Program-made: the position numbers and the translations under genes
Assembly (NCBI GenBank): GCA_963803145.1
Contig: CAWDLW010000023.1
Location: 64,001 to 128,000 of the forward strand
Origin: Methanotrichaceae archaeon
Lineage (GTDB): Archaea > Halobacteriota > Methanosarcinia > Methanotrichales > Methanotrichaceae
DNA length: 64,000 bases
Direction: 5' to 3'
Notes under the pieces: model-generated
Database searches by the model: none
What the model saw: the letters and a program-made list of their open reading frames with translations, nothing else
What the model was told of the DNA's origin: nothing
Part shown: positions 13,137 to 58,900 of the stretch, piece by piece
Layout of the letters: every line of letters starts with the position of its first letter
How positions within the stretch are numbered: the first letter of the stretch is position 1

Positions 13137-13339
13137 CTTACAACCATTTATGAATCAATAACATTGGAATTAATCATATAATTAAGGCTGCAAGATATAA
13201 ATATTTTCTATCATCGAACTTTCATGTTTATTTCTAGCTATGCCCTTTCTTCCAACTAATTGCCTAATAAAGGACCTTAACTGGCTTACTTAATGTCAGT
13301 ACTGAGAGCTATATGACAGTGGCCCCATAGCTACTAAAT

Positions 13340-31383: not shown

Positions 31384-32115
31384 TTGCGATTCTTACTAGG
31401 CCTCGATGAAGCCAAAATTAGAGATTGGTCGGCCTTAAGCGCGGTAGGCCTCGAAACCCCCAGCCAAAACCAGTATTCTCTGGTAGGGGCATCGAAAAAG
31501 CAAAGGCTGCCATACGATCAGATAGTTGACTGGGTCATTGCTCAGATGAATAAACCCTTTTTCAACACGAAGGTCACCCATAAGCCCAAGCTCATCATGG
31601 ACGCTACTGGCGTGGGTGCGCCGATTCGAGACATGTTCATCAAGGCAGGCGTTAGCCCGGTGGGCGTATCAATCACCACTGGCAGCAACTGTTCAATTCA
31701 AGATGGTATTTATCATCTCGGAAAGGCCCGGCTGATAGGGACCTTCATAGCTGTGTATGATCAGGGCCGGATCAAGGTCAATCCCAATATCCCTGTATGG
31801 CCCCTAATGGAGCGAGAACTGCTCTCATTCAGGGCTCAGCAGAATCAATCAGGCCACATCAAGTTTGAAGCAGCAGCAGGTGAGAACGACGATCTGCTGA
31901 CAAGTCTTGCGCTTGCAATCTGGTATGGCGAAGAGATCCTCGGCCAGAAAAAGACACAGATAACTTTTCCAATTCCTAAACAGGCTATAACAGGCGGAGG
32001 TCTTTCAAGCTCGTTTTTAGAGAGCACGACATTTGCCAGCCCAAAGCAGGACATGGTAACGAGACGCCTTCAGAACGAAGCTATAGACAACGATATTAGG
32101 CGGTCAACCTCATGA
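31384..32115 (+). CDS. terL: Terminase large subunit, nuclease domain as a separate gene
   Basis: LGLDEAKIRDWSA, DATGVG, ENDDLLTSLALA (RNase H-like). Confidence 0.85.
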   Translation: MRFLLGLDEAKIRDWSALSAVGLETPSQNQYSLVGASKKQRLPYDQIVDWVIAQMNKPFFNTKVTHKPKLIMDATGVGAPIRDMFIKAGVSPVGVSITTGSNCSIQDGIYHLGKARLIGTFIAVYDQGRIKVNPNIPVWPLMERELLSFRAQQNQSGHIKFEAAAGENDDLLTSLALAIWYGEEILGQKKTQITFPIPKQAITGGGLSSSFLESTTFASPKQDMVTRRLQNEAIDNDIRRSTS

Positions 32116-36225: not shown

Positions 36226-36261
36226 GCGCTCGTGTGAGCGCTCGTGTGAGCGCTCGTGTGA
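36226..36261 (+). repeat. 12-bp tandem repeat x3
   Basis: GCGCTCGTGTGA x3, each forming GCTC-GTGT-GAGC. Confidence 0.9.
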
Positions 36262-36284
36262 GTAATTTTAGGAGAGTGATAATT

Positions 36285-37250
36285 TTGGTATCTAACGATG
36301 GAATGAATAACTCCTCATTTATACCCATCGAATGGGCGATGGGACTGAGGACCATCGGTTACAACAGGATAACCGATTATGTGAAGAAGTACCAAGATAA
36401 CATGACTATGAGGAACGTCATAGCCAAAAAGACTGTGATAGATCCGGCTGCGGATATCGATCTGGTCCTTAGGTACGATGTAGACAATACAGAAGAGGCC
36501 AAGATCATGGCCAAGGGCTCTGTGGCCACGTCGCTCGAAGAGAACGGCAACATGGACAAGTATACTGTGATCCAGATCGGCAAGGGCTTCAAGATCTACG
36601 AGAGAGACCTGAAGAAAGATCCCGAGACCCAGACCAGGAAGATCGATATCTGCACAAGGCTGGTCCACAGGCTTGAGGATAAGCTAGCAATCCTCGGAAA
36701 CGTTGATGAAGGCATATACGGCCTTGCTAATGCAGCAGCCGATAACCCCAACGGTGAAATCCTGCCATTTGGGTCAGAAGAGGTCGAGAACGACAGCGGC
36801 GGCATCTCGATACCTAATAACGGTCAATGGAACGGCAAAGGACCCAACGGTAGGAGAGACATCTACGAAGATATCCTCGAAGCCACGACCAGAGTGGACC
36901 CTGACTTCGGATTCATGCCAGCATTCTTCATGGGCAATATCAGAACTTGTGCCATGCTGTTCAATAACGATTCCGAGAGGCATCCATTCGCTGACCAGAT
37001 CTGCGGCCTGTTCGGTAAGAATAGGGGCGACTATTCCTGGATATGGAGGTCTAACCTGATTCCTAATGGCATAGGCTATGTCATACCCAAGGATATGCTG
37101 GCTGCAGAGTTTGCCATCCAGTCTGAACTCCAGTTGAACACAGATTATCCGATCCAGCAGGGTAGGTTCTGGCCTGTAGACCTTACTGAGTGGATCGTGC
37201 CTGTTGAGGTCCACAGGAAGCAGGCTATAGTTCGAGTAGCTACGACTTAG
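36285..37250 (+). CDS. Major capsid protein (HK97 fold)
   Basis: About 320 aa; IGKGFKIYERDL..VHRLEDKLAILGN..GIYGL; start uncertain (36276/36285/36303). Confidence 0.8.
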   Translation: MVSNDGMNNSSFIPIEWAMGLRTIGYNRITDYVKKYQDNMTMRNVIAKKTVIDPAADIDLVLRYDVDNTEEAKIMAKGSVATSLEENGNMDKYTVIQIGKGFKIYERDLKKDPETQTRKIDICTRLVHRLEDKLAILGNVDEGIYGLANAAADNPNGEILPFGSEEVENDSGGISIPNNGQWNGKGPNGRRDIYEDILEATTRVDPDFGFMPAFFMGNIRTCAMLFNNDSERHPFADQICGLFGKNRGDYSWIWRSNLIPNGIGYVIPKDMLAAEFAIQSELQLNTDYPIQQGRFWPVDLTEWIVPVEVHRKQAIVRVATT

Positions 37251-37264
37251 GGGGCCTACTATCC

Positions 37265-37564
37265 ATGGTCGATTCGAAATATGGAAAGCTAGTGATAGTC
37301 GGCACGGACAATATCGTTGACCAGGCCATTACCCTAGCTAAGCTTTATGGCGGCGGCGGGAAGTTCACGATTCCCGCCAATGCTGGAACAGTTACAATAG
37401 AGCATGGATGCCCTGAAGAGCCCGGCGTCGTCCTCCTAACAGACATCGACCTTCCGGCCATGGCCGTTGTTGATTCTGTAGATGAAACAAACTTAGTAAT
37501 CAAGTATAAAGGTGGAGTTAAACCGGATGTAGTAGGGCATGGCTATTGGATAGTGATTGCATGA
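37265..37564 (+). CDS. Small virion-associated protein
   Basis: VTIEHGCPEEP..V motif; follows the capsid gene. Confidence 0.55.
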   Translation: MVDSKYGKLVIVGTDNIVDQAITLAKLYGGGGKFTIPANAGTVTIEHGCPEEPGVVLLTDIDLPAMAVVDSVDETNLVIKYKGGVKPDVVGHGYWIVIA

Positions 37565-38118
37565 AAAGAGTATTAATGGCAATAATGATTTTCATAGCGA
37601 TAGCGGCAATTTTTCTATTCTCCGCAGAAGGATCTCATTTCTTGACTATGCCTAATGATACCTATGTCAATGGCACTTTTGCCGCCCTGAACCCACAAAC
37701 GAGTAACATTATTGATACCAACTATGGCCTAACCAACTCGTCCAATAAGATCAGAGTAAACATAGGGAGCGCTACCGGCCTTCAGTTCTCAGCGGGTTCT
37801 TTGGGAATAAAAGCTGCAGATCCCACAATAGGGCTAAGCTCATCAGGTGCAAAACTTGGAGCCTCAAAGGTACATGTCTCAACAATATCAGGCGGCGCGG
37901 CTGGAAATCATACTTTAACTGGGTCAGCCCTGGGAGATGAGGTATGCGGCGTGACATATTGGGCAAAGCCTACTTACAATCTATCATCAATGTCAGACCT
38001 TACTACGGAATTCCAGGGAACCGGTAAAGGGATAATTGCTTCTAATGTGATAGCCAACGGAGGAGGTACAAATACGGCAGGCGGATTCCTACAGATATTT
38101 TGGATAGACAGGACATAA
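37561..38118 (+). CDS. Gly/Thr-rich protein with an N-terminal signal/anchor helix
   Basis: MKRVLMAIMIFIAIAAIFLFSAEG. Confidence 0.65.
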   Translation: MKRVLMAIMIFIAIAAIFLFSAEGSHFLTMPNDTYVNGTFAALNPQTSNIIDTNYGLTNSSNKIRVNIGSATGLQFSAGSLGIKAADPTIGLSSSGAKLGASKVHVSTISGGAAGNHTLTGSALGDEVCGVTYWAKPTYNLSSMSDLTTEFQGTGKGIIASNVIANGGGTNTAGGFLQIFWIDRT

Positions 38119-40258: not shown

Positions 40259-40699
40259 ATGACCAATGTTAGAGGTTTGTTAGTTGCCGGTCAAAACCAG
40301 GCCCTGGATGCAGTCTTTGGCTCTGGAACCCCGGCAACATTGTATGCAGGATTGGCCCAAAGTGTAACAGGATCTCCTTTGGCTCCATCGGGCGAGCCGA
40401 CCATAGGAAGCAATGGATATGCCAGGGTAGCTATTACAAATAACGCTACCAACTGGCCTGCTGCATCAGCGGGCGCTAAGACTTGCCAGGTTGATGTAGT
40501 ATTCCCAACTTCGAGCGGTGCATGGGCTTCAGGAAACCAGCTTACAGTATTCGTACTGTATGATTCCACAAGTGGCGGAGCAGCAATAGGGTTTGCGACG
40601 TTATCAACGCCCATAATCATATCAGGTGCGGGCATCACTGTAAAGCTACTGCATGCGAACAACGACCTGCAGGTGTCCATAACCGGGTCCGATACGTAA
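40259..40699 (+). CDS. Small virion/fibre-associated beta protein
   Basis: LYAGL..GEPTIGSNGYARVAIT..VVFPTSSGAW..LYDSTSGG; paralogous to the C-terminus of 49029-50420. Confidence 0.7.
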   Translation: MTNVRGLLVAGQNQALDAVFGSGTPATLYAGLAQSVTGSPLAPSGEPTIGSNGYARVAITNNATNWPAASAGAKTCQVDVVFPTSSGAWASGNQLTVFVLYDSTSGGAAIGFATLSTPIIISGAGITVKLLHANNDLQVSITGSDT

Positions 40700-40923: not shown

Positions 40924-41415
40924 ATGTCGAAGGAAAAAGACGATCTTGGCGACATGCCTGTATTAGACAGGTTAGTGCCGAATATACTAAGAGATGAAAG
41001 CAAAGATTGGTTGAACGACGATCTCTGTAACTACACAGGAGACGGCTCAGATCTGCCAACCGGAGGATATTCTACAGTCCCAGGTTGGAACCCTGAGAAG
41101 GTCGTTAGACAATGGATGGTAGAAGATGTAGACGCTGACGAGGGCTTCTCTCTAAAGCACACCAGAGAGCTTGTTGCTGACGATATTATTGTTGGCACAG
41201 TAATGAATCTGAAAGCTCTTGCCGTGATTGTCAGCGCTTTTGGCAGAGACTTCTATACTATCGAGGACGCCAATGGAGAGAGACTGACTCTTGACAAATG
41301 GTATCAGAAGTATGGCACAAATGGTCTCGGCCTGGTCGCTATTAGAAACATGAGAGAAGAACTCACAGGTGGCGGAGTTCATTACGGTGATAAGAAAGCA
41401 GAGGGATCTAAGTGA
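40924..41415 (+). CDS. Hypothetical acidic protein
   Basis: AGGAGG SD before ATG 40924. Confidence 0.65.
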   Translation: MSKEKDDLGDMPVLDRLVPNILRDESKDWLNDDLCNYTGDGSDLPTGGYSTVPGWNPEKVVRQWMVEDVDADEGFSLKHTRELVADDIIVGTVMNLKALAVIVSAFGRDFYTIEDANGERLTLDKWYQKYGTNGLGLVAIRNMREELTGGGVHYGDKKAEGSK

Positions 41416-41756
41416 GAATAAGAATCTTTGAATCCCTTATCATTATTTTACTCCTGATGTCTGTTGTTACTGCACATCTAGCCACACCGTTGAATATCGT
41501 GCAGAATGCAGGCAAAGAGAACATAACTACAATCTCTATTTCAGGCCTGAACTCAAGTGCCGCTGATGCGATGGGAAAACTCAACAACAATAATTCTCTG
41601 TGGCGAGGATCGACCTTCCGTAATTTCGACAACGGAATTCGCGTTGATGCGGAATATACAATTATTCAAGGAACAAATAGCACTATCGGCGGAGTTCCTA
41701 CAAATCTACTCAACTTCTCAAAGACTATGCCGCCAATCGTGAAAGTAGGTGATTAA
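41412..41756 (+). CDS. Small secreted protein
   Basis: Signal-peptide-like N-terminus; NxS/T sequons. Confidence 0.6.
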   Translation: MRIRIFESLIIILLLMSVVTAHLATPLNIVQNAGKENITTISISGLNSSAADAMGKLNNNNSLWRGSTFRNFDNGIRVDAEYTIIQGTNSTIGGVPTNLLNFSKTMPPIVKVGD

Positions 41757-41757
41757 A

Positions 41758-42687
41758 ATGGTTGATAATCGTCGTACACACGGAATAAAAATATCTGATG
41801 ACCAGCGCCATGCTAATCGTAAGAGAAGCATGGTAGCTCATCAAAAGCTGAGAGCCGAGCACTTCACATATCCGAATTCGACTGACTGGCGCAATGTTGA
41901 CGGTAAAGACTTTACTACTTCGATAAAAGATCAACTGCAATGTGGAGCATGTACTGCTTTTGGAACTTGCGGAGTTGGTGAGTGCGTGTTTAAGATCACT
42001 CAGAACGATCCAACGTTGCAGCCGGATTTCTCGGAGCAGTTCTTGTTCAATGCAGTGAAAGGAACCTGCGAGGATGGTGCTGACATCAACGATATCACTC
42101 AGGCTCTAGTCGCACCAGGAACACCGGACGAGGCGTGTTGCGAGTATCTCCAAAAGCAAGTTTGCCCAGATGCTATCACGAGACTTTTCAAGGCAACAGG
42201 CAATACAGAGATTGTGACGGATGCCGAAGCTAAGCAGTGGCTAGCCACGAAAGGTCCGTTGGTATCGGGTATGGGAGTTCCAAAATCGTTCAATGATTAT
42301 AATGGCGGGATATTCAAACAGCAAGGAGCTAATGATGCAATAGAAGGATATCACTGCATAGGAATTTACGGATACAACGAAAAAGAAGGTTATTGGATCT
42401 GTAAGAACTCCTGGGGATCAGATATTTGGGGAGAGGCAAACCCGAATCCAAACGCTGATCTGACTAAGAAAGGCTGGTTCAAAATGGGCTATGGCGAATG
42501 TGGCATGGGATCTGATATACCGTTCTTCGGATTCCAGGCGGTGAAAGGCCCAAACTCGCCTAACCCAAATCCTGAGCCAGACCCAACCCCAAGTCCGATT
42601 AACGAGATTCCGTTGTGGATTAAAATAGCGGCTATCGTTGTAACGGTCGTTATCATCGCGCTCGGATTATACTTCAGAGCGAATTAA
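41758..42687 (+). CDS. Papain-like (C1A) cysteine peptidase with a C-terminal membrane anchor
   Basis: DWR, DQLQCGACTAF, FSEQ, YHCIGIYGY, KNSWG; Pro-rich linker then hydrophobic helix. Confidence 0.92.
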   Translation: MVDNRRTHGIKISDDQRHANRKRSMVAHQKLRAEHFTYPNSTDWRNVDGKDFTTSIKDQLQCGACTAFGTCGVGECVFKITQNDPTLQPDFSEQFLFNAVKGTCEDGADINDITQALVAPGTPDEACCEYLQKQVCPDAITRLFKATGNTEIVTDAEAKQWLATKGPLVSGMGVPKSFNDYNGGIFKQQGANDAIEGYHCIGIYGYNEKEGYWICKNSWGSDIWGEANPNPNADLTKKGWFKMGYGECGMGSDIPFFGFQAVKGPNSPNPNPEPDPTPSPINEIPLWIKIAAIVVTVVIIALGLYFRAN

Positions 42688-42710
42688 AGATCAAACGACT
42701 GAGAGGCAGT

Positions 42711-45650
42711 ATTATAAAAATTTTATTTTTATTCTTGGCAATCCTGTTAACAGGATTGCTGGTATCGACATCGATTGCATCAACTGCGCCTGTTGTAACG
42801 AACGCAAACTACTTTGCCTCGGAAAGTGCGAGACTAGGAGGAGTTGTATTAGATACAGGCGGAATTAATCCAACTGTTCATATATATTGGGGAACCTCAG
42901 ATGGTGGAACAACTGTGGGAAGTTGGCAGCATGACGAGAATCTTGGTATCCAGCCTCAAGGCGCTTTCCATAAAGACATAACCGGCCTCAGTCCAAGTTA
43001 TACGTATTATTTCAGATGTTATGCTGTTAACACCGTTGGGAGTGCGTGGGCTGACGGAACTACAAAATTTATAACCCAATCGTTGCCTGGCGCTCCGAGT
43101 GTCTCAAATTCTTACGGTGCGTCTAATATAGCTTATTCGTCAGCTAGATTAAACGGACTTATAACAGCCACTGGCGGTGAAAATCCCACGGTTCGAATCC
43201 ATTGGGGAACTACGGATAATGGAACTGCCGCCGCCAACTGGCAGCATAATGAAAGTCTAGGAGTATTGCCAGCGGGAGCCTTTTATGAAGATATAAATGG
43301 TCTCAGTGGAAATACTACATACTATTATAGGTGCTATGCAGCCAATCCAGGCGGGAGCGCATGGGCAAACAATACCTCAAATTTCACAATTACAAATTCG
43401 CCGATGCCGCTTGTAGGATCTAATGATAATGGCCCATGGCCCTATGGCGCAGGATTAGACTACTTTGATTTGATCCAATATAAAGCAACATCCAGCGGAA
43501 TAATAAACGATTTCAGGGTCAAGACATCAGGAAGTGGACATGTAAAAGTTGCAGTATATGCCGATAGTTCAGGCGCGCCAGGTGCATTGCTTTCCCGTTC
43601 CGACAATGCGGGAACAGCAGTAAGCGCGGGCTGGAATAATATAAGCATAGATGAAACAACCATAACCAAAGATAACTATTATTGGCTAGCATTCGATGCT
43701 GATGCTAATATTGTATGCTACAATTATTCCAGTAGTTGGCCGCTATCCTGGTATGGTAAAACTGCCATATATAGCAGCTTTACATTCCCACAGACAGCAG
43801 GTACGGGATTTGGTACATGGACAGGATACGCAGCAGCCGTATCTGCATGGTACGTTCCAGTGACTTCAAAGAAGCTAGTAGGAACGGCAGATAACGCCTA
43901 TCCTTACTTCTCAGGTAGTGGATGGTTTGCTCTTAATGAGTATAAAGCAACATCCAGCGGGATTGCAACTGTTTACAGGGTCAAGACATCAGGAAGTGGA
44001 CATGTAAAAGTTGCAGTATATGCCGATAGTTCAGGCGCGCCAGGTGCATTGCTTTCCCGTTCCGACAATGCGGGAACAGCAGTAAGCACGGGCTGGAATA
44101 ATATAAGCATTCCGGCAACGATTATAAATAAGAATAGTCACTATTGGCTGGCATTTATCGCCGACAGCGATATTATATGCTATACCTACGAAAGTGATTA
44201 TCCTATGTCATGGTATGGTAAAACTGCCACTTATAGCAGCTTTACGTATCCATCGACAGCGGGAGGAGGATTCACAACTTGGACGGGATATCATGCTGCG
44301 TTGGCTTTGTGGGATATGTCGATATTTCCGACAATCCCAAATCCTTACCAATGCTATAAAGGCACAAAAAACTTAACTTCTTTTTATCCCAATGCCCAAA
44401 TAGCGTACTGGACTCCATCAACTACTTATCCTGATGGATATGTCGCATTGTATACGCCTGCCAATGAATCTACACCGGCTAAAGTGATTGATCCTTTTCT
44501 TGGTATCAGTGATGCGAGTAAATATCCTGTGATAAGCAAGACTTTCGACAATTTGACGGCGTTCGATGACTATATGATATACGTCAATCCATATCCTGAA
44601 AACTACAGCTTTGCCAATACGTCCTTAACAGCTTTCAGAGATTCAATTAAAAACGCTTCCAAGAATGCAGCGATTAGTATAACTGTTAGTTCAAGTGATG
44701 ACGTTCCGATAGTCATAACAACAGATCTACCGTATATTTATTCTATAGGAGAGAGCAACGGCCAAACTTCGAGATGTCTAATATTCCCAGTGGCGGATCT
44801 AGGATATTGTGAAGCTGGCACGCTGGCTTTATGGCAACATTATCATGATCTGGGTATATCTTGTTGGATTGCTACATGGACCACACCGTTCTGGAGCAAT
44901 CAACCAAGTCATGACGAGCTGTGGATTCCCAACTGCGTCTCTGTACGATATCCGTCGGTGTTTCCTGGGCTGGTCGGCACAGACCCTAGTGGCTTGGGCA
45001 ATACGCCTTATTTCTCATACATTCAGGAATGGGAGGATACGCACGATAACAATCAACTTTCGTTTGCTTTGAAATTGGGGCAAGAGGCGGGGCTGGAACA
45101 ATATCTTGGAAGCAGCCCATTATATAGCCTGTTTACTAATTCGGCTGGCGGCACTTTGATAGATTCGCACTATGGGCCAGAATTCTGTGACCAGATGCCC
45201 ACTCCTTCACATTTGAGTGCTACCCCGGCTGAATATCAAGCATATGAGAGGTCGTTATGGGCTGATGTAACAAATTTGAAGCTTAGTGCCAGTCATATGA
45301 AATGGAGCCCTTCCCAACTCGAACATATCAATAGTAGGCTTGAGGAAATCAATAGAACTTTGGACATTATCAACGCTTCGATGAGCTCTTCGGAACCTCT
45401 CAATAACACCATGCAGCGCTATTTAAACTACGGACTTAACAACAGCAGCCTAAATCTAACAGTGAATATGAACATCACAGAATGCGGGCCTATTGGCGAT
45501 TGTTACAACATTACTGAAGAGCCTAAATATTCCAACGAAAGCGAAAATCTGACATTTGCCAGATTCTCGCCACAGAGAATATCGATAAAGACTTCACCGA
45601 ATGCGAGCACAGCGGCTCGCAGACATCGAAGCCAGAACAATCAATTTTGA
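42711..45650 (+). CDS. Large exported adhesin-like protein (two Fn3-like and two repeated beta domains)
   Basis: GLSPSYTYYFRCYAVN / GLSGNTTYYYRCYAAN; duplicated SGHVKVAVYADSSGAPG domain; start inferred upstream of TTG 42735. Confidence 0.7.
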   Translation: MIKILFLFLAILLTGLLVSTSIASTAPVVTNANYFASESARLGGVVLDTGGINPTVHIYWGTSDGGTTVGSWQHDENLGIQPQGAFHKDITGLSPSYTYYFRCYAVNTVGSAWADGTTKFITQSLPGAPSVSNSYGASNIAYSSARLNGLITATGGENPTVRIHWGTTDNGTAAANWQHNESLGVLPAGAFYEDINGLSGNTTYYYRCYAANPGGSAWANNTSNFTITNSPMPLVGSNDNGPWPYGAGLDYFDLIQYKATSSGIINDFRVKTSGSGHVKVAVYADSSGAPGALLSRSDNAGTAVSAGWNNISIDETTITKDNYYWLAFDADANIVCYNYSSSWPLSWYGKTAIYSSFTFPQTAGTGFGTWTGYAAAVSAWYVPVTSKKLVGTADNAYPYFSGSGWFALNEYKATSSGIATVYRVKTSGSGHVKVAVYADSSGAPGALLSRSDNAGTAVSTGWNNISIPATIINKNSHYWLAFIADSDIICYTYESDYPMSWYGKTATYSSFTYPSTAGGGFTTWTGYHAALALWDMSIFPTIPNPYQCYKGTKNLTSFYPNAQIAYWTPSTTYPDGYVALYTPANESTPAKVIDPFLGISDASKYPVISKTFDNLTAFDDYMIYVNPYPENYSFANTSLTAFRDSIKNASKNAAISITVSSSDDVPIVITTDLPYIYSIGESNGQTSRCLIFPVADLGYCEAGTLALWQHYHDLGISCWIATWTTPFWSNQPSHDELWIPNCVSVRYPSVFPGLVGTDPSGLGNTPYFSYIQEWEDTHDNNQLSFALKLGQEAGLEQYLGSSPLYSLFTNSAGGTLIDSHYGPEFCDQMPTPSHLSATPAEYQAYERSLWADVTNLKLSASHMKWSPSQLEHINSRLEEINRTLDIINASMSSSEPLNNTMQRYLNYGLNNSSLNLTVNMNITECGPIGDCYNITEEPKYSNESENLTFARFSPQRISIKTSPNASTAARRHRSQNNQF
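43514..44110 (+). repeat. 135-bp direct repeat (43514-43648 / 43976-44110), one mismatch
   Basis: CAGGGTCAAGACATCAGG...AATATAAGCAT occurs twice. Confidence 0.9.
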
Positions 45651-45729
45651 ATCATTTTTCAGTGCTCGGCAGTCGCTTTTTTGTTGCTGTCAATCTCGCA
45701 TTGAATGTTTAAGAAAATCTAGGAGGAAA

Positions 45730-46047
45730 ATGAAAATGGCAGATAAAACTGTAGAGAAACTTGGTATAGATTGGAAAGGGTTTAGACAGGATGCTTTGCT
45801 GACAGCTCAGGAGATCATGAATGCGAAAGATGCTCTTGAGTCGAACCCCAAGATAATGAGCGATGCTATGACTCTTGGCACTGCTCTTGGCGTGTGCATC
45901 GGAACATGGAGCCTAGTCCCAGGATTTGCAGTAGGTCAGGCTGCAATGAACCTCATGAACGATATCGTTGCCGATAAAACCCTGGTGACCGAGTGCGCCA
46001 CTCTTGTAGAGCTTCTAAAGAAGCTGGCAGCCGACATAGCGCAGTAA
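45730..46047 (+). CDS. Small protein with a hydrophobic segment (possible holin-like)
   Basis: AGGAGG SD; LGTALGVCIGTWSLVPGFAVG. Confidence 0.45.
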   Translation: MKMADKTVEKLGIDWKGFRQDALLTAQEIMNAKDALESNPKIMSDAMTLGTALGVCIGTWSLVPGFAVGQAAMNLMNDIVADKTLVTECATLVELLKKLAADIAQ

Positions 46048-46148
46048 GAAGGGATGCCTTATCACCACGAGCGCCCGTGTGATAAGACAGAGCCCTCATC
46101 GACACCTAACTCTCTCTCAGATTTTAATCTTTTTCGAGAGGCGATCGG

Positions 46149-46472
46149 ATGGCTGAGATTAATGTCGTGTCTCGGATGGCCGTTTTTGAGGACTTCAAAA
46201 CGAGGGCCGAGAAACAGATCGAAGAGCTTTTCAGCAAGATCAACAGCTACGAGGTGTGCACAGCCACAATCAATGTGATGCTGCCTACAATTCAGCGAGA
46301 TTTAACGAAGATCACGGAAGATCTTGAGTCGTTGAAGACATCGCTGAACCAGGGCAAAGGCAAGTCGAAAGCTTGGTATGAGATCCGAGAGTGGCTAGCT
46401 GTTTTCTGTACTCTCGGAGCGGTTGTCATAGCCGGCATCTCTCTCGTAGTCGGCCACATGTTCTGGAAATAA
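46149..46472 (+). CDS. Coiled-coil protein with a C-terminal TM helix (XhlA/holin-like architecture)
   Basis: Heptads, then WLAVFCTLGAVVIAGISLVVG. Confidence 0.55.
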   Translation: MAEINVVSRMAVFEDFKTRAEKQIEELFSKINSYEVCTATINVMLPTIQRDLTKITEDLESLKTSLNQGKGKSKAWYEIREWLAVFCTLGAVVIAGISLVVGHMFWK

Positions 46473-46496
46473 CATCTGTGTTCGTCGGTTAAAGTT

Positions 46497-48722
46497 ATGA
46501 CTCTGCTAAAGTTCAATAGCAAATATGTATTGACGGACTCTTCTCATTCCGTCAACGTCTCATCGTCAACTTTAGCCGATGACACATACGCCTCTCAGAC
46601 TTTTTCATTATCTAAGACTCAAACAGTCCTTGTTATATATCAGGTCGCTAATAATTATGGAACTACTGAAGATTCAGCAGGAAAATATATAGCCATCAAT
46701 GTAGATGGAGTGAATTACGGTCAGGTTGGCCAATGTCCATACGATTCTAATTTTCCTGAAGGGGAGACAACTTTCTGGATCGGTTCATTGGCTGCAGGGA
46801 ACCATACTATTAAAGGCCAATTTGCTGCTACAGTCAATACGAAAACTGTTACTATCGATAACAGAAGCTTGATTATAATAATCTTTGACGGTGACGAATT
46901 TACTTTAGCAACAAGCGCAGTCGCTAACACATTTACGAGTACCTCATTTGCTGATGATAACGTTTCAATTACCGCAACTCCATCAGGGTCATGTGTTGCG
47001 TTAGCAATTTATGCCGTATCTAATAATAAAGGATCTGTAGAAGGAGGTTATGGCAGAAAGATTGCAATTAATTTTGGCGGCAGTGATTTGGTTCAGGTTG
47101 AAGGTACGCCAGCATGTGCCGCAAATTATACAGAGGCGGAATTTACAGCTTATGCAGCTAGTCAAGATGCAACTTCGCTGACGGTTAAAGGAAGGGCAGC
47201 GGTAAACTCATCAGGTACATCAACAATAGATAGGCACTATTTGGCATTGCTGTTTTTCGATCCATCGACTCTACTTGATATAAATACTACAGTTTCTCAA
47301 GTATCTACTACCAGTAACACATTAGTTGATGATTCACAATGTACTATCAGTAGAACAACTACCGACTCAAGAGAACTGCTAGTTATTGCAATAGGCACAA
47401 AACGCCGACCAACGAGCTCGGATTTTCATGGCGAATGTTATGGAATAAGTATCAATGGCGTGGATGTTGCTAGTTCGAGACAGTCACCGTTTAACTCCGG
47501 CGAAGCTAATTCAGTGTCTACAAGCTATGGTCTTACGGTAGCTGCAGGAAGTCAGACAATTAAAGGCAGACTCTCAAACAATTTGACCACCAGCACCGCA
47601 ATAATCGATGCCAGGGTAGTTATTGCATTATGGTTCTCATCAGGTTCTACCGTTGAAGATACTGCTTCAATTGGATCTATAAGCAATTTAACATCTACTG
47701 ATGAGCCATTGATTGAATTATCTGCTAATTTAGCGAATATATCAAAGATTTACGGTGTTAGAGAACTTATACAACAGATCCAATCAATCTTAACCAATTA
47801 TAGCTCTATTCAGTCAACGGACAGAATAATAGCAGAATTGGGCCTTATAATAGAGAGCATATCAAGTGCAAGCTCAATAGATGAGGTTACAGCCGAACCT
47901 ACAGCATCTATTAGTACATTAGCTCGAATCTATAGTGCCTATTCGTTATTTGAATTGATTGAAATAGCTGCATCCTGTCGGTCAGCCTCCCTAATTTCTG
48001 CTGTTGATAGGGTCCTAGCCGAGGCTGCAGCCCAGATCTTATCAGAGACGAATGTTCAGGCCATAACCGAGAGATTGCATGAATCTAGGGCTAATATAGA
48101 GGCTTCAAGCCTGCTTCAATCTAATGATGAGGTCCTGGAAATCGTACATTTAGCAATAGATTCAATCTCTAGGATTTTGTCAGATAACGAAAACATAGCA
48201 GAGACTGCAGCCAACTTGAGATCAAATTCAAAGCTTATGGCCGCTGCGTCCTTGATCTTGATAGAGGTTATAGAGAGGATAATTTCATCTTCTGAAGTAA
48301 ATCCTACGTTATGGCAAATCCAAGAGAGCCAGGCTAGATTATCATCAATATCTTCAGAATATAGCCATCTAGATTTAATTGCTGATATAGCCGCATTAAT
48401 CGTAGGCTCTTCAAGGATCTTATGTTCATCAAAGCAGGACGCAGAGTTTAAAGCGAAAGTATTTTCAGATTCCATTTTCTTTATAAACGAGTTTACCCGC
48501 CTATACGAGGCGTCAGCTGACATAAAATCTCTCGGCAATCTCATTTCAAGAATAAATGAGATTCAGGAAATCCAGGGCCTTATTCTTTCCGATTCTGAAT
48601 TAGAGGCCATGGCTTGGGCTGAAATGATCTATGTTAAGCTTTGGATGGAGACCTCTCTTTATAGAAATAACTTTGATAAAACCCAGATATTCAGGAAGAT
48701 GTATGATAGCTCGGAGGTGTAG
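46497..48722 (+). CDS. Fibre protein: three tandem beta domains plus a periodic stalk
   Basis: Three S..(A/V)DD...T(I/V)KG...ID repeats of about 125 aa, then about 19-aa A.I.S.S.I repeats. Confidence 0.65.
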   Translation: MTLLKFNSKYVLTDSSHSVNVSSSTLADDTYASQTFSLSKTQTVLVIYQVANNYGTTEDSAGKYIAINVDGVNYGQVGQCPYDSNFPEGETTFWIGSLAAGNHTIKGQFAATVNTKTVTIDNRSLIIIIFDGDEFTLATSAVANTFTSTSFADDNVSITATPSGSCVALAIYAVSNNKGSVEGGYGRKIAINFGGSDLVQVEGTPACAANYTEAEFTAYAASQDATSLTVKGRAAVNSSGTSTIDRHYLALLFFDPSTLLDINTTVSQVSTTSNTLVDDSQCTISRTTTDSRELLVIAIGTKRRPTSSDFHGECYGISINGVDVASSRQSPFNSGEANSVSTSYGLTVAAGSQTIKGRLSNNLTTSTAIIDARVVIALWFSSGSTVEDTASIGSISNLTSTDEPLIELSANLANISKIYGVRELIQQIQSILTNYSSIQSTDRIIAELGLIIESISSASSIDEVTAEPTASISTLARIYSAYSLFELIEIAASCRSASLISAVDRVLAEAAAQILSETNVQAITERLHESRANIEASSLLQSNDEVLEIVHLAIDSISRILSDNENIAETAANLRSNSKLMAAASLILIEVIERIISSSEVNPTLWQIQESQARLSSISSEYSHLDLIADIAALIVGSSRILCSSKQDAEFKAKVFSDSIFFINEFTRLYEASADIKSLGNLISRINEIQEIQGLILSDSELEAMAWAEMIYVKLWMETSLYRNNFDKTQIFRKMYDSSEV

Positions 48723-48725
48723 GGC

Positions 48726-49025
48726 ATGTATGCTATACAAGGAGATACGGGAGGTCAAATAATTATAGATGTCTATGAGCGGGATGAGAACCAAGTTAAA
48801 CAGCCCGTAGATATAAGCGCTGCAATGCTGCTAAGGCTTGATGTAACCAGGCAGGACGGATCAATGGAGCAATGGACAGCAACCTTCTTTTCCAATACCC
48901 AGATATCTTATGTCATTCCGGCTAATGCTCTTCCTAAAAAAGAGACTATAAAAATTGATCCTTTTATTAAATGGTCTCCTGATCTATATTTCCATGGAAC
49001 GCCGATTTATCTTATTGTAGGGTGA
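48726..49025 (+). CDS. BppU N-terminal-like small protein
   Basis: GDTG..PVDISAA..V.RQDGS..W.AT..ISY. Confidence 0.55.
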   Translation: MYAIQGDTGGQIIIDVYERDENQVKQPVDISAAMLLRLDVTRQDGSMEQWTATFFSNTQISYVIPANALPKKETIKIDPFIKWSPDLYFHGTPIYLIVG

Positions 49026-49028
49026 ATC

Positions 49029-50420
49029 ATGAGGCATAATACAGGAGTTATCAAGCAGAAACCAGACCCAAGGGATTATTCGATATATCACCCTAAAGTA
49101 AGATCATACTTCGAAAAAACTTTATTGCCTCATTTCTTGTTACCTTCATCAATAGACCTTAGATCTACCGGCAATATGCCTGAAAAAATATGGGATCAGG
49201 ACGGATTCAATACATGTGCTGCTTTTGCTTGTGCCGGTTGCATCGATTATGTTCTTCATAGGGATTATGGAATATTTTTAGATCCTTTAGGCCCATCTAA
49301 GGCATTTCAATATTATAATGCTACAATTCTCGAAGATGGAATCCCAATACAATTATCGCCATCGGCAGGAAGTACGATACGAGGTAACATGATGGCCGTT
49401 ATTGATTACGGGACCATTCCAGAATCGGATTATCTTTACACTGGTGATAACTGTGTGATGGACCCAGGAAGTGAAAATTATAATCTCGGGTCTCGAAATC
49501 TTGCCACTGCTGCAGTACTTATAAGTCAGCCAGGAATGAATTTAACCCAAATTCATAACGCAGCAAAGGCGCAAATTGCGGCAGGCAATCCAGTCGAATT
49601 CTGGGTAGCGTATTATCAACAGTTAGATGATGCAGACCATAGCACCGGAAATATAGGTATACCTTCATCATCAGGGGATTATCACAATACATTGCATGCA
49701 TTAAATTTAATTGGATATGATAATAACCATCTTAATTCAGATGCTTCATTAGGAGCTTACATTGTCCGCAATCATTGGGGTACATCCTGGGGGTTGAATG
49801 GCTATGGATGGCTTCCTTATTGGTGGTTCACTCATTTAGATCCATGGCTTAGTTCTCCTATGGTAGGTGATTTCTGGGTTTTAGTTTCAATGAACTATAA
49901 CTCAGCTCTGGATAAGGAGATATCGGGAGTTCTCAGAACAGTTTCAGAATTCAATGCAACTCCTGAAACTACAATATTCACAGAAGGAGCTAGCGGTTTA
50001 TTTGATGCATATCTTAACATAGCGCTAGATTCCGTACTTGGTTCAGGCAGTCCATCAAGTCTTTATGCGGGCCTGGTTACAGATTGCAGCAAAGACGGCA
50101 TATTAACCGGCGAGCCTACGATAGGAGTTAACGGATATGCCAGAGTCCAAATGGATAACGACGATACTGTTTTCCCTGCTGCAGCAGGTGGGGTTAAGAC
50201 TTGTGCTGCAGATATATTTTTCCCAGAATCTACCGGCTCATGGGCTTTAGGTAATGCATTTACGTATCTAGTTTTGTTCGATGCACCGAGCAGCGGGAAT
50301 GCTCTTGCTGCAGCACCACTTTGGCAGCCTTTCTATGTTCCTTCAGCTCGATACATGGCCGAATTCTTAGCCTTGTATCAATCCATCCAATTCTCATTAT
50401 TGCGAGTAGGTGGGGGTTAG
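49029..50420 (+). CDS. Papain-like (C1A) peptidase fused to a virion-type domain
   Basis: PDPRD, IDLR, DQDGFNTCAAF, HALNLIGY, RNHWGTSWGLNGYGWLPY; C-terminal GEPTIGVNGYARV domain. Confidence 0.9.
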   Translation: MRHNTGVIKQKPDPRDYSIYHPKVRSYFEKTLLPHFLLPSSIDLRSTGNMPEKIWDQDGFNTCAAFACAGCIDYVLHRDYGIFLDPLGPSKAFQYYNATILEDGIPIQLSPSAGSTIRGNMMAVIDYGTIPESDYLYTGDNCVMDPGSENYNLGSRNLATAAVLISQPGMNLTQIHNAAKAQIAAGNPVEFWVAYYQQLDDADHSTGNIGIPSSSGDYHNTLHALNLIGYDNNHLNSDASLGAYIVRNHWGTSWGLNGYGWLPYWWFTHLDPWLSSPMVGDFWVLVSMNYNSALDKEISGVLRTVSEFNATPETTIFTEGASGLFDAYLNIALDSVLGSGSPSSLYAGLVTDCSKDGILTGEPTIGVNGYARVQMDNDDTVFPAAAGGVKTCAADIFFPESTGSWALGNAFTYLVLFDAPSSGNALAAAPLWQPFYVPSARYMAEFLALYQSIQFSLLRVGGG

Positions 50421-52580
50421 ATGACTGTTTTGACCTGGACCCAAACGAGCAGCAACTTAAATAGTACGAAATATGCGATGGGCGGGGATGGGAACAGAGG
50501 CGCAGCTATTTGCATTGGTGGTGATCATTACGGATCAGACATAATAGAAACTGAAGTATTCAACGGCTCTTCATGGTCTGTAGTGAGCAGCATGAATTAT
50601 AGCAGGCAATTTTTAGCGGCCGGAGGTTCGCCATCGGCAGCTTTTGCAACTTGCGGCCAAAATATGTATGTAGGCGGATCTATTAAGTCTACAGAACTCT
50701 ATAATGGTACTACATGGGCTATTTCTATTGATTGTTCAACTGCACGAAAGGAGCTAGCCGGTGGAGGTTCACCTTCTGCAGCTATAATTATGGGAGGCCA
50801 AGACGGCGTACAAACATACGATTTGTGCGAAACCTTTAATGGATCGGCATGGAGCACTCAAGGCAGCCTAACAGCAGTAACCCAAGACATGGGAGGCCAT
50901 GGAGATCCAACAAATGCCATAATTGCCGGTGGCATTGATGATATAGGTGTAACAAATACCACCCAGATTTGGAGCGGTTCAGCCTGGTCAAACACTGGAA
51001 CTTTAAACACATCTCGGCAAATGTTAGTAGTCGGCGGATCTTCAACTAACGCCTTATCAGCTACAGGAATGACGGCTACAGGTTATTGGTCTAACGCAAC
51101 AGAGCTATTCAATGGATCAACATGGTCAGTTGATTCTGCATTTCCAATGTACTGCGGTTATGGTGCAGGCAACGGCAATGCATCAACGGGTATAATTTTT
51201 GGTGGTCGAGCTTCAGCACCTCTATATCTATACTATACCTGGACGGCGCTTGCATCGAATATAGAAGAATCAGCATCTTTAGTTTCAGTCTCGAAGATTA
51301 GATCAAACTTCGAATATCCTATAGAAATATCTGAGAGTATAGGAAGTATATCGGGAATAACCGCAAATATTAGTGCTCTGGATGCTGAAAGAGTAGCGCT
51401 GATAACGACTATCTCCAGCATTCTTGCGACAGGGACACCATACGGGCCTAGGGAGATTGTCGCAGATTCAATAAGCGTTTCGGAAATTATAGCAAATGCT
51501 GAATATGAAATAGAAAAGGCCGCACACATCCTGAGTATATCCTTAATGGATGGCCATTTCGATTTTGGCGCTACAATAGATTCAGAAAGCCAAATCATAG
51601 CCAATCCCGAGCTAATCTATGAAGCTCATGGCAATATTCATAGCATCTCAAATGTTCTGGCCTATATCAGCGAGTATTATCTTCATACGGCAGCTAACCT
51701 GAATTCAGAGACCCAGTTTTTAGCCTGGCCGGAATGGGGGGATGTCTATACTCAGCTCGAAATAGCTCATATAACTTCAAGCTCGATAGTTAACGCAATA
51801 GGTAACTCGGAGCACGAATTAAGGGCTCTTTTGGCTTCTGGATCATCTTTAAGTTCAATCCTCCATTTAATACAAGATTGCTGGGCGGCAGGCTCAAACA
51901 CCTCAAAAATCTGGGTAGTAGGGACTGAAATTGATGTTCCTTTGGATATCATTTTAGCAGAATTTACCGTCCCGCCGCTATCATTAGTCTTTGCCAGGGT
52001 TTGCCCAATAAAAGATTTCACCGAGGAGGTAAATGTGGCTCAAAACGAAATAATATTTAAAGGGCAGTCTATGCTGAGGCTGCAGATAACCACGAACACG
52101 CCGATATCCGGAGCACAAGAATTAAGGATCAAATACAAGAAACCATCTGGAGTTACTGGACATTTTAGCGCTACGTCTATTGATGACATAAACGGTGTCT
52201 TAATTAGAGATATCATAGACAATTCCGAGATAGACGAGCAAGGAGATTGGACTATATGGCCATGGGTGAAGTTTTCAGATGGTCGAGATGCTCCGGGGTT
52301 CTGGGTAAAGATGACAATCATAGACGAGCCAGGCCATGAGCTAACCAGAGCCAAGCCTGTTAAACAGGCGAATCCTCGGACGCCCTTTACCTATATTTAC
52401 AAAAAGAATGGTCATCCTATTGCTTATGCCAAGCTGCTAATAGTTCAAAGGGATGAGCAAATCGAGGCTAAAACAGATATTCACGGCAAAGCAGGTCCTT
52501 ATTTGCTGATGCCTGGGCGCGTAGATATCAGGTCTCTTGATGGCCTCAATCATCATGAAATTTGCGAGGTAGGGGGATAG
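50421..52580 (+). CDS. Kelch-like propeller fibre protein with stalk and BppU-like domain
   Basis: Repeats GG..TE.FNGS.WS..LN..R; IKYKKPSG..IDEQGDWTIWPWV. Confidence 0.7.
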   Translation: MTVLTWTQTSSNLNSTKYAMGGDGNRGAAICIGGDHYGSDIIETEVFNGSSWSVVSSMNYSRQFLAAGGSPSAAFATCGQNMYVGGSIKSTELYNGTTWAISIDCSTARKELAGGGSPSAAIIMGGQDGVQTYDLCETFNGSAWSTQGSLTAVTQDMGGHGDPTNAIIAGGIDDIGVTNTTQIWSGSAWSNTGTLNTSRQMLVVGGSSTNALSATGMTATGYWSNATELFNGSTWSVDSAFPMYCGYGAGNGNASTGIIFGGRASAPLYLYYTWTALASNIEESASLVSVSKIRSNFEYPIEISESIGSISGITANISALDAERVALITTISSILATGTPYGPREIVADSISVSEIIANAEYEIEKAAHILSISLMDGHFDFGATIDSESQIIANPELIYEAHGNIHSISNVLAYISEYYLHTAANLNSETQFLAWPEWGDVYTQLEIAHITSSSIVNAIGNSEHELRALLASGSSLSSILHLIQDCWAAGSNTSKIWVVGTEIDVPLDIILAEFTVPPLSLVFARVCPIKDFTEEVNVAQNEIIFKGQSMLRLQITTNTPISGAQELRIKYKKPSGVTGHFSATSIDDINGVLIRDIIDNSEIDEQGDWTIWPWVKFSDGRDAPGFWVKMTIIDEPGHELTRAKPVKQANPRTPFTYIYKKNGHPIAYAKLLIVQRDEQIEAKTDIHGKAGPYLLMPGRVDIRSLDGLNHHEICEVGG

Positions 52581-55937: not shown

Positions 55938-55988
55938 TTGTATGTTCACAGGGAGCATACAACTAAAATATTTTTAGGATTGATACTT

Positions 55989-58900
55989 ATGGGCGTTGAT
56001 GATATTGGCTCGGCCGCAATGCTGGATATCTCTAATTATGTAAGTGCAGCCGATGCACTTATTGATAAGACCGAGCAGATGCAAGAGAAACTTAATGCCA
56101 TCTCTGAAAGTCTTAAAGATCCTATCCCTATCACCGTAGATATCAGCCAGATAGAGCAGGCCACAGAAAAGCTGGACGAGCTTAAGCTAACGAACATCGA
56201 TGTTTCAATGAATGCTGCAGATGTTCAGGAGCAACTAAACAATTTAACAGAGTCGTCAAGCGGTTTAGATAAGGAGCTGGAGATAGGCGTTACCGCTGAT
56301 ACGTCAGCTGCATCTGCTTCTATTTATGATCTAACCGACTCGGCAACAAGTCTAGCTGAAAATTCTTATGAACTTCTCATAACTGCCGACGATACACAGA
56401 CAATAGATAAATTTGTAGAAATTGAAGATAAATATGAAGAAATCAAACAGAAGGTAGCGGAGCCTTTAAAAGTAGGGGGTGAGGGAGGCGGGGAAGAAGA
56501 AGGGGGGATGTTGGAAAAGCTCAAAGGAGCGGCTGAAGGTTTTGGCGTTCCAACAGGTCTATTAAATGCGGGTCCTGAAATGCTGGTTGGCGCTGGTGCT
56601 GCAGTAGCTTTAGGCGAGGGCCTGCATAAGTCCGTTGAGGCGGCTACATCATTTCAACAAAGCATGCAATCAGTAGGAGCTTTGACGGGACAGACCACTA
56701 GCGGACTGAAAGAAATAGCCGAGGAAGCCAGCGGCGGAACTACAGTAGGCTTGAACGAGGCAGGCCAGGCCATGATTTCCCTGGCAGATAACGGCGTTCG
56801 AACAAAGGATATGGAAAAAGATCTAGCTGCCTCAATAACGCTTTCAGAAGGCGGAATAATAAGCATGGGGAGCGCTACAACAGTTTTGAGCACTACGCTA
56901 AAGCAATTCCATCAGGACGGGACCCAGGCGGCGCAAGATGTGAACATTATGATTGCCGCTTCGCAGCTGGGAAAGACTTCAACTGAGGATATGGCATCTG
57001 CATTGAGGATAGCGGGGCCTACCGCCTCAGCAGCCGGGTTATCATTTGCGGATACTGCAGGCTCTCTCTCTCTGATGGAGGGAGCCGGTATAAGGGCTAG
57101 AACCGCTTCAAGCGATCTAAATACAATTTTAAAAGATATGTCAGATCCGCCCAAGAAGGTTGCCGAAGGTTTAACCTCTATAGGTGTATCTGCTGACGAT
57201 ATTAATCCTCAGCTTCATTCTTTTGATGATGTAATCGCAGATTTAAAAACTCATATTACATCATCGGCTGAAGCATCAAAAATATTTGGTACTACTGCAG
57301 GCCCTGGACTTTGGGCGTTGCTGCAGCAGGCAAATTTAAAAGAATATACTCAAGATCTCCAAAACAGTAATGCCGGAGTCGAGGCGGCGGACAAAAACAC
57401 TCAGACATATGAAGCATCTATGAAAAAGTTTGGTGCGGCAATAGAAACATGCGAGATAGACTTAGGTACTCTTCTTCTTCCTATTTTAACAGATTTTGTT
57501 ACTGTTGTTGATGAAGGCGTTACCGCTCTTGATAAACTCGGAAAAGGCTTGTATTCAACTGGCGAATATGCGGCAAACACAACCAATTCAGGGCTTCAGA
57601 GTCTTGGTAATGTGGTGCAGCAGGGCACAAACTGGCTTGACAAAAATGCGCTTGGTATGACTGATGATCAAATATCGGCACAGTATGCCGATCCTGGTAA
57701 GAAGATAGGAACAACTGTAGGAGAGAATATCTGTAACGGCATCAGTGATTCATATGATGACATAAACGGCACCATGAACGATGTCTTAACAAAATCTGGA
57801 ACGGATGCAGGAACAGCTGCCGGAGCTGCAGCAGCAAAGGCTTTTTCGGATGCCAACGATGCTTATGCTAAATCTTATGGAAGCTACATAAGCAATGATT
57901 ATATCATGAAATGGAGAACATACGACCAAACAACGGGAGCGGTTACAAATCCCGGCGCATGGGTGAACCCTAATGAAGGGCAGCCAACGCAATCATACGA
58001 TTCAGGATTTAGCACCACGACTCATGCATTAAATGCAAAAGTCCCGCTAAGTTATTCAGAAAGTTATGGTGACTCCAGCGGTTCCGAATACGGTATGAGT
58101 GAGATGAATTTAACGATTGCCGGAAAGACTTATTCTTCTGGCTGGATAAAAAATGACTCATTCGACAGAGCTAATGAATTAAACAAGCTGATTTCGGAAG
58201 CGAGCGGGGATCTACATACTGATGTTAATACCTTGATCGGGGCCGAAGGAATGAATCTGCTGCAGGGAAAAGAGGATCAGACAACATATAATGCTAGGAT
58301 GGCGGTAAATTCGATAGCTGATGTAAAAATTACTCCTGCAACAGTCACAATAGACCCGACTAAACTTGATGAAGATAAAGCCTTTACAGATGATATAAAT
58401 AAAATGTATAAGGACAATACCGTATCTATAGATGATCTGACCAAGGCATACAAGGACTTTCAGAATGCGCCGAATCTTTCAACTAAAGTAATGGAAGATT
58501 ATTCCAACGTTCAAAGGGAAACCGAAGATTTAAAGAAATGGAATGAGCAATTACAAGAGCTTGAGGCAATGCCTGCAAAAGCTCAGCCTTCAGATTATTT
58601 GAATCAACTGAATACTTTAAAATCGGAGATCGAAGGAGCACAAACTTCTATAGCAGCGAACGTCAAGGACATCCATTCTGAACTTTCGAGTGTTTTTGAT
58701 ACTTCCGACATACCGATAGGAAACGTCAAAGGATGGATTGATACCCAAGTTGCTTCAATGGCGTCCACGATTAGCGATGATTGGAAAAAAGGATTCACTA
58801 TAACGGATGAAGATACAATTGCAGCTTTTGTACCAATGCTCCAATGGATGGAGAACAATATGCCCGTCGAGTTTGCCAGGATCGGCGGCACTTCAACTCT

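Follow-up and report, generated by a model that had tools for sequence, protein, structure and literature searches.

The window analyzed here, 64,000 nucleotides of contig CAWDLW010000023.1 (positions 64,001 to 128,000 of the forward strand) from the Methanotrichaceae assembly GCA_963803145.1, holds most of a ~58-kb integrated head-tailed provirus of a Methanothrix-like methanogen, an element that extends past the window end. Two genes in its structural block encode proteins that, by the sequence and fold features tested, are members of peptidase family C1, the papain family. The first, P1 (41758–42687, 309 aa; on the + strand, like P2, the capsid, tape measure and 146-aa Gp80 genes and ORFs 41412–41756, 46149–46472 and 48726–49025 treated below), combines a C1A peptidase domain with a proline-rich linker and a C-terminal transmembrane (TM) helix; the second, P2 (49029–50420, 463 aa), joins a C1 peptidase to a Gp80-type fiber domain. 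The best overall explanation, which we hold tentatively and at somewhat less than even confidence, is that P2 would be displayed on a fiber and act on the proteinaceous envelope of the host, and that P1 would serve as a membrane-tethered lysis enzyme. The case is stronger for P2 as a virion-borne protein than for P1 as an egress enzyme, and the most far-reaching version of the idea, a two-part proteolytic envelope-crossing system derived from host C1A peptidases, with an enzyme-tipped chain fiber outside and a membrane-tethered protease inside, is a doubtful proposition as a whole. A first-pass annotation of this DNA, made from its letters alone, had proposed one proteolytic enzyme for entry and one for egress; of this, a virion location of P2 is supported by homology and egress via P1 is plausible from its architecture, and that either enzyme cleaves the envelope is something we infer.

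The first 13 kb of the window consist of host genes, among them those for a Hef-type helicase-nuclease, a PAS histidine kinase and an MFS transporter. Viral genes begin at ~13.3 kb and include DUF5131, a Dam methylase and a ParB-like nuclease; the structural genes comprise small and large terminase, a portal-like open reading frame (ORF), capsid and tape measure, all on the + strand, and long distal ORFs. The major capsid protein (36234–37250) matches the major head protein family phrog_264 (E 2.6e-6) and served as the query for related viruses, and the tape measure protein (55938–60764; PF10145, E 5.8e-26, and several PHROG tape-measure families) places the tail module downstream of the protease block. 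Past the window end lie two more long ORFs, then a minus-strand tyrosine integrase (L012:9537-10505) at the right end of the provirus, then the host genes FmdE and CbiK. A 17-bp exact direct repeat brackets the element; its left copy, a putative attL, lies at 13255–13271 (no strand assigned) and its right copy just past the integrase, outside the window (window-equivalent 71302; G000:C23, ~135302), and this pair is the sole exact repeat of at least 14 bp between the 9-kb and 4-kb flanks compared. Viral genes, integrase and flanking repeat thus together identify an integrated head-tailed provirus. The source assembly comprises 51 contigs and 4.13 Mb, and the McrA that it encodes belongs to a cluster of 302 proteins at 90% identity, those with names being Methanothrix sp. 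or Methanotrichaceae, in agreement with the Methanothrix-type host that had been assumed from the DNA. Hosts of this type are sheathed, with a proteinaceous envelope devoid of murein. Pfam scans of ~60 provirus ORFs yielded no glycan hydrolase or pseudomurein endoisopeptidase, as the first-pass annotation had stated, a negative that denotes absence of recognition only, as most ORFs matched nothing.

The assignment of P1 to the papain family comes from sequence matches. Peptidase_C1 is its sole family match (PF00112, E 9.2e-26, 91.7 bits against a cut-off of 20.7; domain at 41872–42435), and 142 papain-family sequences of the PDB are matched at E<=0.001, the top one being fruit bromelain (6u7d, 2.2e-14). 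Gln59 (41932–41934), Cys65 (41950–41952), His199 (42352–42354) and Asn217 (42406–42408), together with Trp219, occupy columns that do not vary in an alignment of P1 with ten relatives (A5), residues being numbered from the ATG at 41758. This ATG is the likely start, with AGGTGA just upstream and the stop of the preceding ORF 1 nt before it, and the public gene call is also 309 aa long. In papain, the Gln forms the oxyanion hole, Cys and His the catalytic dyad, and Asn is the partner. P2 matches PF00112 at E 5.3e-10 (40.2 bits, same cut-off) within a C1 domain spanning residues 1–295 (49029–49913), and alignment to solved papain-family chains and relatives shows that Gln57 (49197–49199), Cys63 (49215–49217), His223 (49695–49697) and Asn248 (49770–49772) are all present. 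Both proteins thereby keep the C1A motifs, as noted in the first-pass annotation. The closest PDB sequence to P2 is xylellain (3ois, E 9.9e-12), which is also its nearest solved fold: an AlphaFold2 model from a 23-sequence alignment (mean pLDDT, the predicted local confidence score, 75.8; catalytic domain mostly at block means of ~80–96) retrieved 3ois in Foldseek at E 3.7e-16 with a target-normalized TM-score of 0.78, and 288 PDB chains matched at E<=0.001, all of them papain-family among the 50 matches listed. No Pfam family of the inhibitory propeptide of eukaryotic C1A enzymes was detected in P1 or P2, with 38 residues preceding the P1 domain; such a propeptide is not required of prokaryotic C1 members, so that the family membership stands. 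P1 and P2 share 22% identity (E 0.002) and therefore represent two different C1 lineages; a recent duplication giving rise to both was rejected on the same grounds.

Downstream of its catalytic domain, P2 continues through an interdomain linker (residues 296–331, 49914–50021; pLDDT below 50) into a Gp80-type domain (residues 323–457, 49995–50399), which matches PF23140 at E 4.3e-12 (46.9 bits, cut-off 27). The same family is matched by a stand-alone 146-aa ORF upstream (40259–40699; E 1.6e-12, 48.3 bits), a putative fiber monomer, and the two are 45% identical over 136 aa (E 5e-35), which bears out the paralogy seen at first inspection. A profile built from the 146-aa protein and five relatives (A3) matches PDB chain 8jou_a, a solved 140-aa "virion-associated phage protein", at E 2.6e-15 over 126 profile positions, and the P2 domain is tied to this structure because of its 45% identity to the 146-aa protein included in the profile. 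Both provirus sequences thus score above cut-off in the family of podophage chain-fiber monomers (GP4 gp80, A1002, VP1; PF23140, 8jou). GP4 gp80, VP1 gp11 and A1002 gp40/gp41 have been described as similar chain-like fiber monomers, dimers of which dock on a tail protein (PMC13730344). In contrast to these podophage systems, the host is archaeal and the P2 domain carries an enzyme at its N terminus; moreover, the provirus encodes a tape measure protein and is therefore not a podovirus. Bead-chain neck fibers of myophage A-1(L), reported to be composed of a small repeating unit and a larger distal cap protein (PMC10966104), offer a parallel in design only and belong to a different family.

An enzyme fused to a Gp80 domain is rare. 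Gp80 relatives were collected and 160 loci examined, namely 80 of 169 relatives from IMG/VR (alignment A4, A3 remade) and 80 of 259 from metagenomes. In the former set 77 of 80 are single-domain proteins of 124–174 aa, the others being two tandem duplications and one protein with a 190-aa N-terminal extension; in the latter, 76 of 80 are at most 180 aa long and four measure 183–221 aa. Neither a C1 peptidase match in the flanks covered nor a C1-Gp80 fusion was found at any of the 160 loci. A single-domain size of ~125–175 aa fits the 146-aa ORF and not the 463-aa P2, and by these comparisons the former is a typical Gp80-family protein and the latter an atypical, Gp80-containing fusion. Neither P2 nor P0148, each used as a single query sequence against IMG/VR, gave a confirmed relative, and a word-based search with the Gp80 region of P2 returned P2 itself only. 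P0148, a 410-aa protein on a 5.5-kb Logan contig, is the single other C1-Gp80 fusion found; its Gp80 part is 43% identical to that of P2, whereas its C1 domain aligns in A5 with the subfamily of P1 and host proteins (30% identity to P1) and not with that of P2, so that the same architecture seems, judging from these alignments, to have been assembled from different peptidases. Gene order offers a further clue: the 99-aa ORF directly upstream of P2 (48726–49025) has a homolog in another Methanotrichaceae genome (G035), where the gene that directly follows encodes a plain Gp80 protein of 138 aa; this mirrored order makes P2 look like a fiber gene that gained an enzyme. As a separate observation on relatives of the catalytic domain, P0125 (478 aa, from a Negativicutes metagenome-assembled genome) fuses a P2-type C1 domain to Amidase_2 (N-acetylmuramoyl-L-alanine amidase), a lysin-like architecture.

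P2 is probably a virion component, as the homology of its C-terminal domain suggests, and this domain predicts where to look for the protein, namely in the virus particle. Among bacteriophages, virion-borne depolymerases and cell-wall hydrolases are fiber-displayed enzymes that open the outer layer before DNA delivery. The logic proposed for P2 is the same, except that P2 is presumed to act on protein in place of polysaccharide or murein, and that its catalyst is a C1A peptidase. P2 would be built into a Gp80 chain fiber, or cap it, together with its 146-aa paralog and thereby place a protease on the virion; held on its flexible linker, the protease would cut a host envelope protein (sheath, end plugs or S-layer) and give the tail access, which would make P2 the proteolytic counterpart of phage depolymerase fibers. 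For action on the envelope itself we consider the chances about even.

The architecture of P1 points in another direction. The C-terminal TM helix (residues 286–306, 42613–42675), followed by only three residues, is the only strongly hydrophobic stretch of the protein (Kyte-Doolittle mean 2.64 over 19 aa) and is preceded by the proline-rich linker (residues 264–280, 42547–42597), similar linkers being present in host and viral relatives; both elements had been recognized in the first-pass annotation and are confirmed here. P1 has no signal peptide, as its N-terminal 40 residues are hydrophilic and basic. An archaeosortase-type sorting signal (PGF-CTERM and kin) was also considered and rejected, given the lack of any NCBIfam match at E<=0.1 and of an N-terminal hydrophobic segment that could act as a signal peptide. 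In our proposal P1 would be made late and stay tethered at the inner face of the cytoplasmic membrane until the membrane fails; a breach caused by an adjacent small TM protein, or by the helix of P1 itself, would then allow it to attack the envelope from inside, in the manner of phage endolysins that bear a C-terminal TM domain. Such endolysins are exemplified by M4Lys of Salmonella phage BSPM4, whose TM domain is reported to be required for lysis, a lysis that depends on neither holin nor Sec, and by Enc34 ORF39 of a Hafnia phage, which is described as behaving like M4Lys by an unknown export route. P1 shares with both the order of an N-terminal catalytic domain and a C-terminal TM helix without signal peptide, a likeness of architecture only: M4Lys and Enc34 ORF39 are peptidoglycan hydrolases of viruses with Gram-negative hosts, whereas P1 is a C1A peptidase. 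Lacking a peptidoglycan-hydrolase domain, P1 is not a member of the C-terminal-TM endolysin family, although it may work like one. On this analogy, and with a small TM ORF tightly coupled to P1 and similar C1A genes with hydrophobic C-terminal tails in other viral contigs, an egress role for P1 is plausible, and we place it a little below even.

With regard to origin, a host source is suggested for both catalytic domains by their resemblance to chromosomal C1 genes, which are common among Methanotrichaceae. Of 104 other genomes of the family, 46 encode relatives of the P2 C1 domain; one genus contributes 37 of these (out of 59 genomes), and neither of the two genomes from the genus of the host has one. 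Full-length matches within the family are ~27–38% identical, and the closest relative overall reaches 43%. Four host neighborhoods of P2-type genes were inspected, three of which (G079, G074, G034) have housekeeping flanks including biotin carboxylase, ThiC, ribosomal protein S3Ae and an NfeD/SPFH pair, and the fourth (G047) contains other peptidase genes and unassigned ORFs. Relatives of P1 are present in 61 of the 104 family genomes, mostly at 35–46% identity and often ~675 aa in length. C1A peptidases with proline-rich linkers and DUF4114-like repeats are common in Methanotrichaceae, and the host itself carries a copy (G000:C15:148236-148916). The linker is shared by all relatives of P1 aligned in A5 but P0054, and in most of them a beta-rich C-terminal region follows. 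None of the ten P1-type host proteins read has a C-terminal TM helix; most end in a beta-rich region, and the longer forms have DUF4114-like repeats. Likewise, the cellular C1 peptidases of Methanotrichaceae lack a Gp80 domain, in which P2 differs from them. Capture of both catalytic domains from the host lineage is the simplest account of these similarities and probably the correct one, the direction of transfer being one that we infer; the provirus would have taken two different C1A peptidases and given each a new address.

C1A genes also recur in contigs of other tailed viruses. An IMG/VR scan yielded 40 C1A loci, of which four are giant-virus bins by name and several others exceed 100 kb; 19 ORFs were inspected. 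Six of these (L147, L149, L150, L151, L154, L155) encode proteins of ~250–300 aa that consist of a bare catalytic domain, a proline-rich linker and a hydrophobic or amphipathic C-terminal tail. In L147, L149, L154 and L155 the ORF upstream of the peptidase matches the N-terminal portion of PHROG 20754 (annotation: protease), and in L152 (5644–6726) this piece and the peptidase form a single protein; Pfam NAL1_N is a further match for the L147 ORF and for the L152 protein. The small PHROG 20754-type ORF may be a separately encoded pro-region or a partner of the viral C1A enzyme. Larger C1A proteins of 452–500 aa are encoded by L145, L153 and L156, the first ending in two hydrophobic helices and the other two carrying PEGA domains. 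The L153 gene (5863–7221) is placed like P1, between capsid/adaptor and tail-terminator/major-tail genes, and structural genes were seen on one side only in L145 (capsid gene upstream) and L156 (5965–7467; major-tail gene downstream). The provirus ORF immediately preceding the capsid gene has a homolog, 39% identical, in L156, L158, L159 and L160.

Several observations weigh against the proposed roles of P1 and P2. Tail-anchored and without a signal peptide, P1 would expose its catalytic domain to the cytoplasm, and the lack of a signal peptide in nine of ten P1-type Methanotrichaceae proteins inspected means that the ancestral substrates may be intracellular. Holin-like genes had been suggested near P1, and small single-TM ORFs are indeed present (41412–41756 and 46149–46472); however, neither these nor ORF 45601–46047 match any holin family of Pfam, PHROGs or NCBIfam. 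Confidence in the P2 model is only moderate across the Gp80 domain, where means over 10-residue blocks are 53–83. Absence of the genes from related viruses had been named beforehand as an outcome that would speak against the proposal, and this is in part what the searches returned. The capsid protein retrieved three related proviral fragments among the 104 family genomes, the same three being all that were found among species-representative genomes, all of them Methanotrichaceae, and none of these contigs, which all end or are cut near the capsid gene, contains a P1 or P2 homolog. IMG/VR contributed 15 contigs with capsid proteins 25–38% identical, and PF00112 was found in none of the ten whole capsid-related records (two rated 100% complete), which makes the proteases accessory and not core genes. 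The large subunit of the terminase is split into two ORFs in different frames, 30519–31364 (the ATPase half) and 31384–32115; the latter matches only a PHROG of unknown function, and the related L045 has one 444-aa terminase ORF. The split may reflect a defect, a frameshift or a two-part terminase, and the provirus may consequently be defective. Finally, the sheath of Methanothrix has been described as amyloid-like, remarkably resistant and still intact after cell death (PMC11576556), so that a papain-type enzyme may not cut it, and secreted SH-like proteins, reported for 13 of 16 Methanotrichales proviruses, are proposed in the same study as the route of egress for these viruses. The SH-like proteins address the same egress problem in the same host group, but by a different mechanism, a non-enzymatic interference with sheath assembly (PMC11576556). 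Viral proteases are named in the same text only as one possible way out of the sheath (Medvedeva, Borrel and Gribaldo 2024, PMC11576556).

Part of this evidence suits an alternative in which P1 is a host-derived accessory gene that opens no wall and acts intracellularly or on the cytoplasmic side of the membrane, where it could degrade or process membrane proteins, take part in host takeover or superinfection exclusion, or mature the secreted neighbors encoded at 41412–41756 and 42735–45650. The tail-anchor topology, the relatives without signal peptides and the capsid-related viruses without C1 genes all fit such a role, and so do the N-terminal hydrophobic signals of the flanking ORFs. It agrees less well with the location of the gene inside the structural (late) block, tightly coupled to its neighbors, and with the recurrence of C1A genes with linker and hydrophobic tail in unrelated viral contigs; in addition, the bacterial-virus lysins with a C-terminal TM domain show that this topology is compatible with lysis. 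We regard an intracellular P1 as possible, but rather unlikely.

For P2, the protease could serve the particle itself, either by trimming fiber or neck proteins during assembly or by removing itself afterwards, a notion to which the adjoining large, probably structural ORFs (741 aa and 719 aa) and the known occurrence of self-cleaving modules on phage fibers lend some weight. However, the predominance of single-domain Gp80 proteins without C1 genes nearby indicates that fiber assembly does not normally need a protease, and the catalytic domain of P2 is a complete, cell-type peptidase on a long flexible linker; we therefore judge this use improbable. Least convincing, and in our view very improbable, is a decaying provirus in which both proteases are leftover or domesticated cargo without a viral role, an idea prompted by the split terminase and the occurrence in a single genome but at odds with two full-length protease ORFs that each retain the four catalytic-site residues, with open structural ORFs of up to 1608 aa, and with the integrase and flanking repeat still in place.

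P1 and P2 are put forward as the best candidates to date for enzymes with which a virus cuts through a protein cell wall on its way out of and into the host. How head-tailed viruses enter and leave protein-walled archaea is an open question, to which the two proteins bring concrete and clonable candidates. The Pei enzymes are cysteine peptidases of a different family from P1 and P2 and cut the isopeptide bond of pseudomurein, a polymer that Methanothrix to our knowledge lacks. PeiW, PeiP and PeiR of Methanobacteriales viruses are the wall-opening enzymes named for methanogen viruses in a 2024 review, as far as its available text goes, and the same text notes that enzymes able to degrade S-layers had yet to be identified in viruses of archaea. 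Our literature search turned up no paper in which an archaeal virus encodes a papain-family protease, with a 2023 compendium of methanogen viruses and its supplements lying outside the search; the nearest case in print is a host cysteine proteinase that is upregulated in MetSV infection and was proposed to help lysis (PMC9694453). If the roles proposed for P1 and P2 hold true, the two enzymes would be the first from archaeal viruses to do by protein degradation what depolymerases and endolysins do for phages, and viral C1A enzymes with linker and hydrophobic tail would constitute a wider, unrecognized class of lysis enzymes. In digesters and wetlands, Methanothrix ranks among the major acetoclastic methanogens, and sheath-opening enzymes would be useful tools. 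Should the enzymes be inactive on the envelope, the provirus would still present a case of host peptidase capture and a rare enzyme-Gp80 fusion.

The genes around the proteases comprise several ORFs with membrane or secretion features. ORF 41412–41756 (114 aa), which ends 1 nt before the P1 start, has one N-terminal hydrophobic helix and matched no family of Pfam, PHROGs or NCBIfam and nothing in the ESM Atlas; it is a possible membrane partner of P1, although its features fit a secreted protein equally well. The 107-aa ORF at 46149–46472, with a C-terminal TM helix and a weak match to phrog_4038 (a family of unknown function), is conserved at ~30% identity in L041 (8056–8334), L052, L053 and L055–L058, where it lies 2–3 kb downstream of the capsid gene. 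No C1 peptidase (PF00112) was found in the five of these six IMG/VR records that were searched (L052, L053, L055, L056, L058), and a holin-like role for the 107-aa protein is only a guess. Directly downstream of P2 lies ORF 50421–52580, which shares its N-terminal domain, PHROG 27227, with the 1582-aa ORF that starts at 60779 and runs past the window (E 1e-30 and 2e-42, respectively); a common domain of this kind is as expected of exchangeable fiber or receptor-binding proteins on a shared anchor.

Further features were observed along the provirus. Directly after P1, a 971-aa ORF (42735–45650) begins with a signal-like helix, which is unusual for the structural block, matches weakly the fibronectin-like N-terminal domain of purple acid phosphatase and contains an internal segment in two near-identical copies, which start at residues 253 and 407. 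ORF 37546–38118 (190 aa), just after the capsid gene, has an N-terminal hydrophobic helix, and its size and signal fit those of secreted SH-like proteins; it is an SH-like candidate only, its single-sequence AlphaFold2 model having a pLDDT of 36.5 and all ESM Atlas matches being sub-threshold. A scan for promoters and terminators gave counts at or below the shuffled expectation, the patterns used being of bacterial consensus. Among the Gp80 loci, the gene after Gp80 in L107 encodes a long Gly/Thr/Ser-rich protein, by appearance a candidate beta-helix spike. In the left arm of the provirus, ORF 19102–20085 matches YdcK beta-solenoid repeats and bactofilin and, very strongly, PHROGs 7964 (E 3e-118) and 5070 (E 8e-101).

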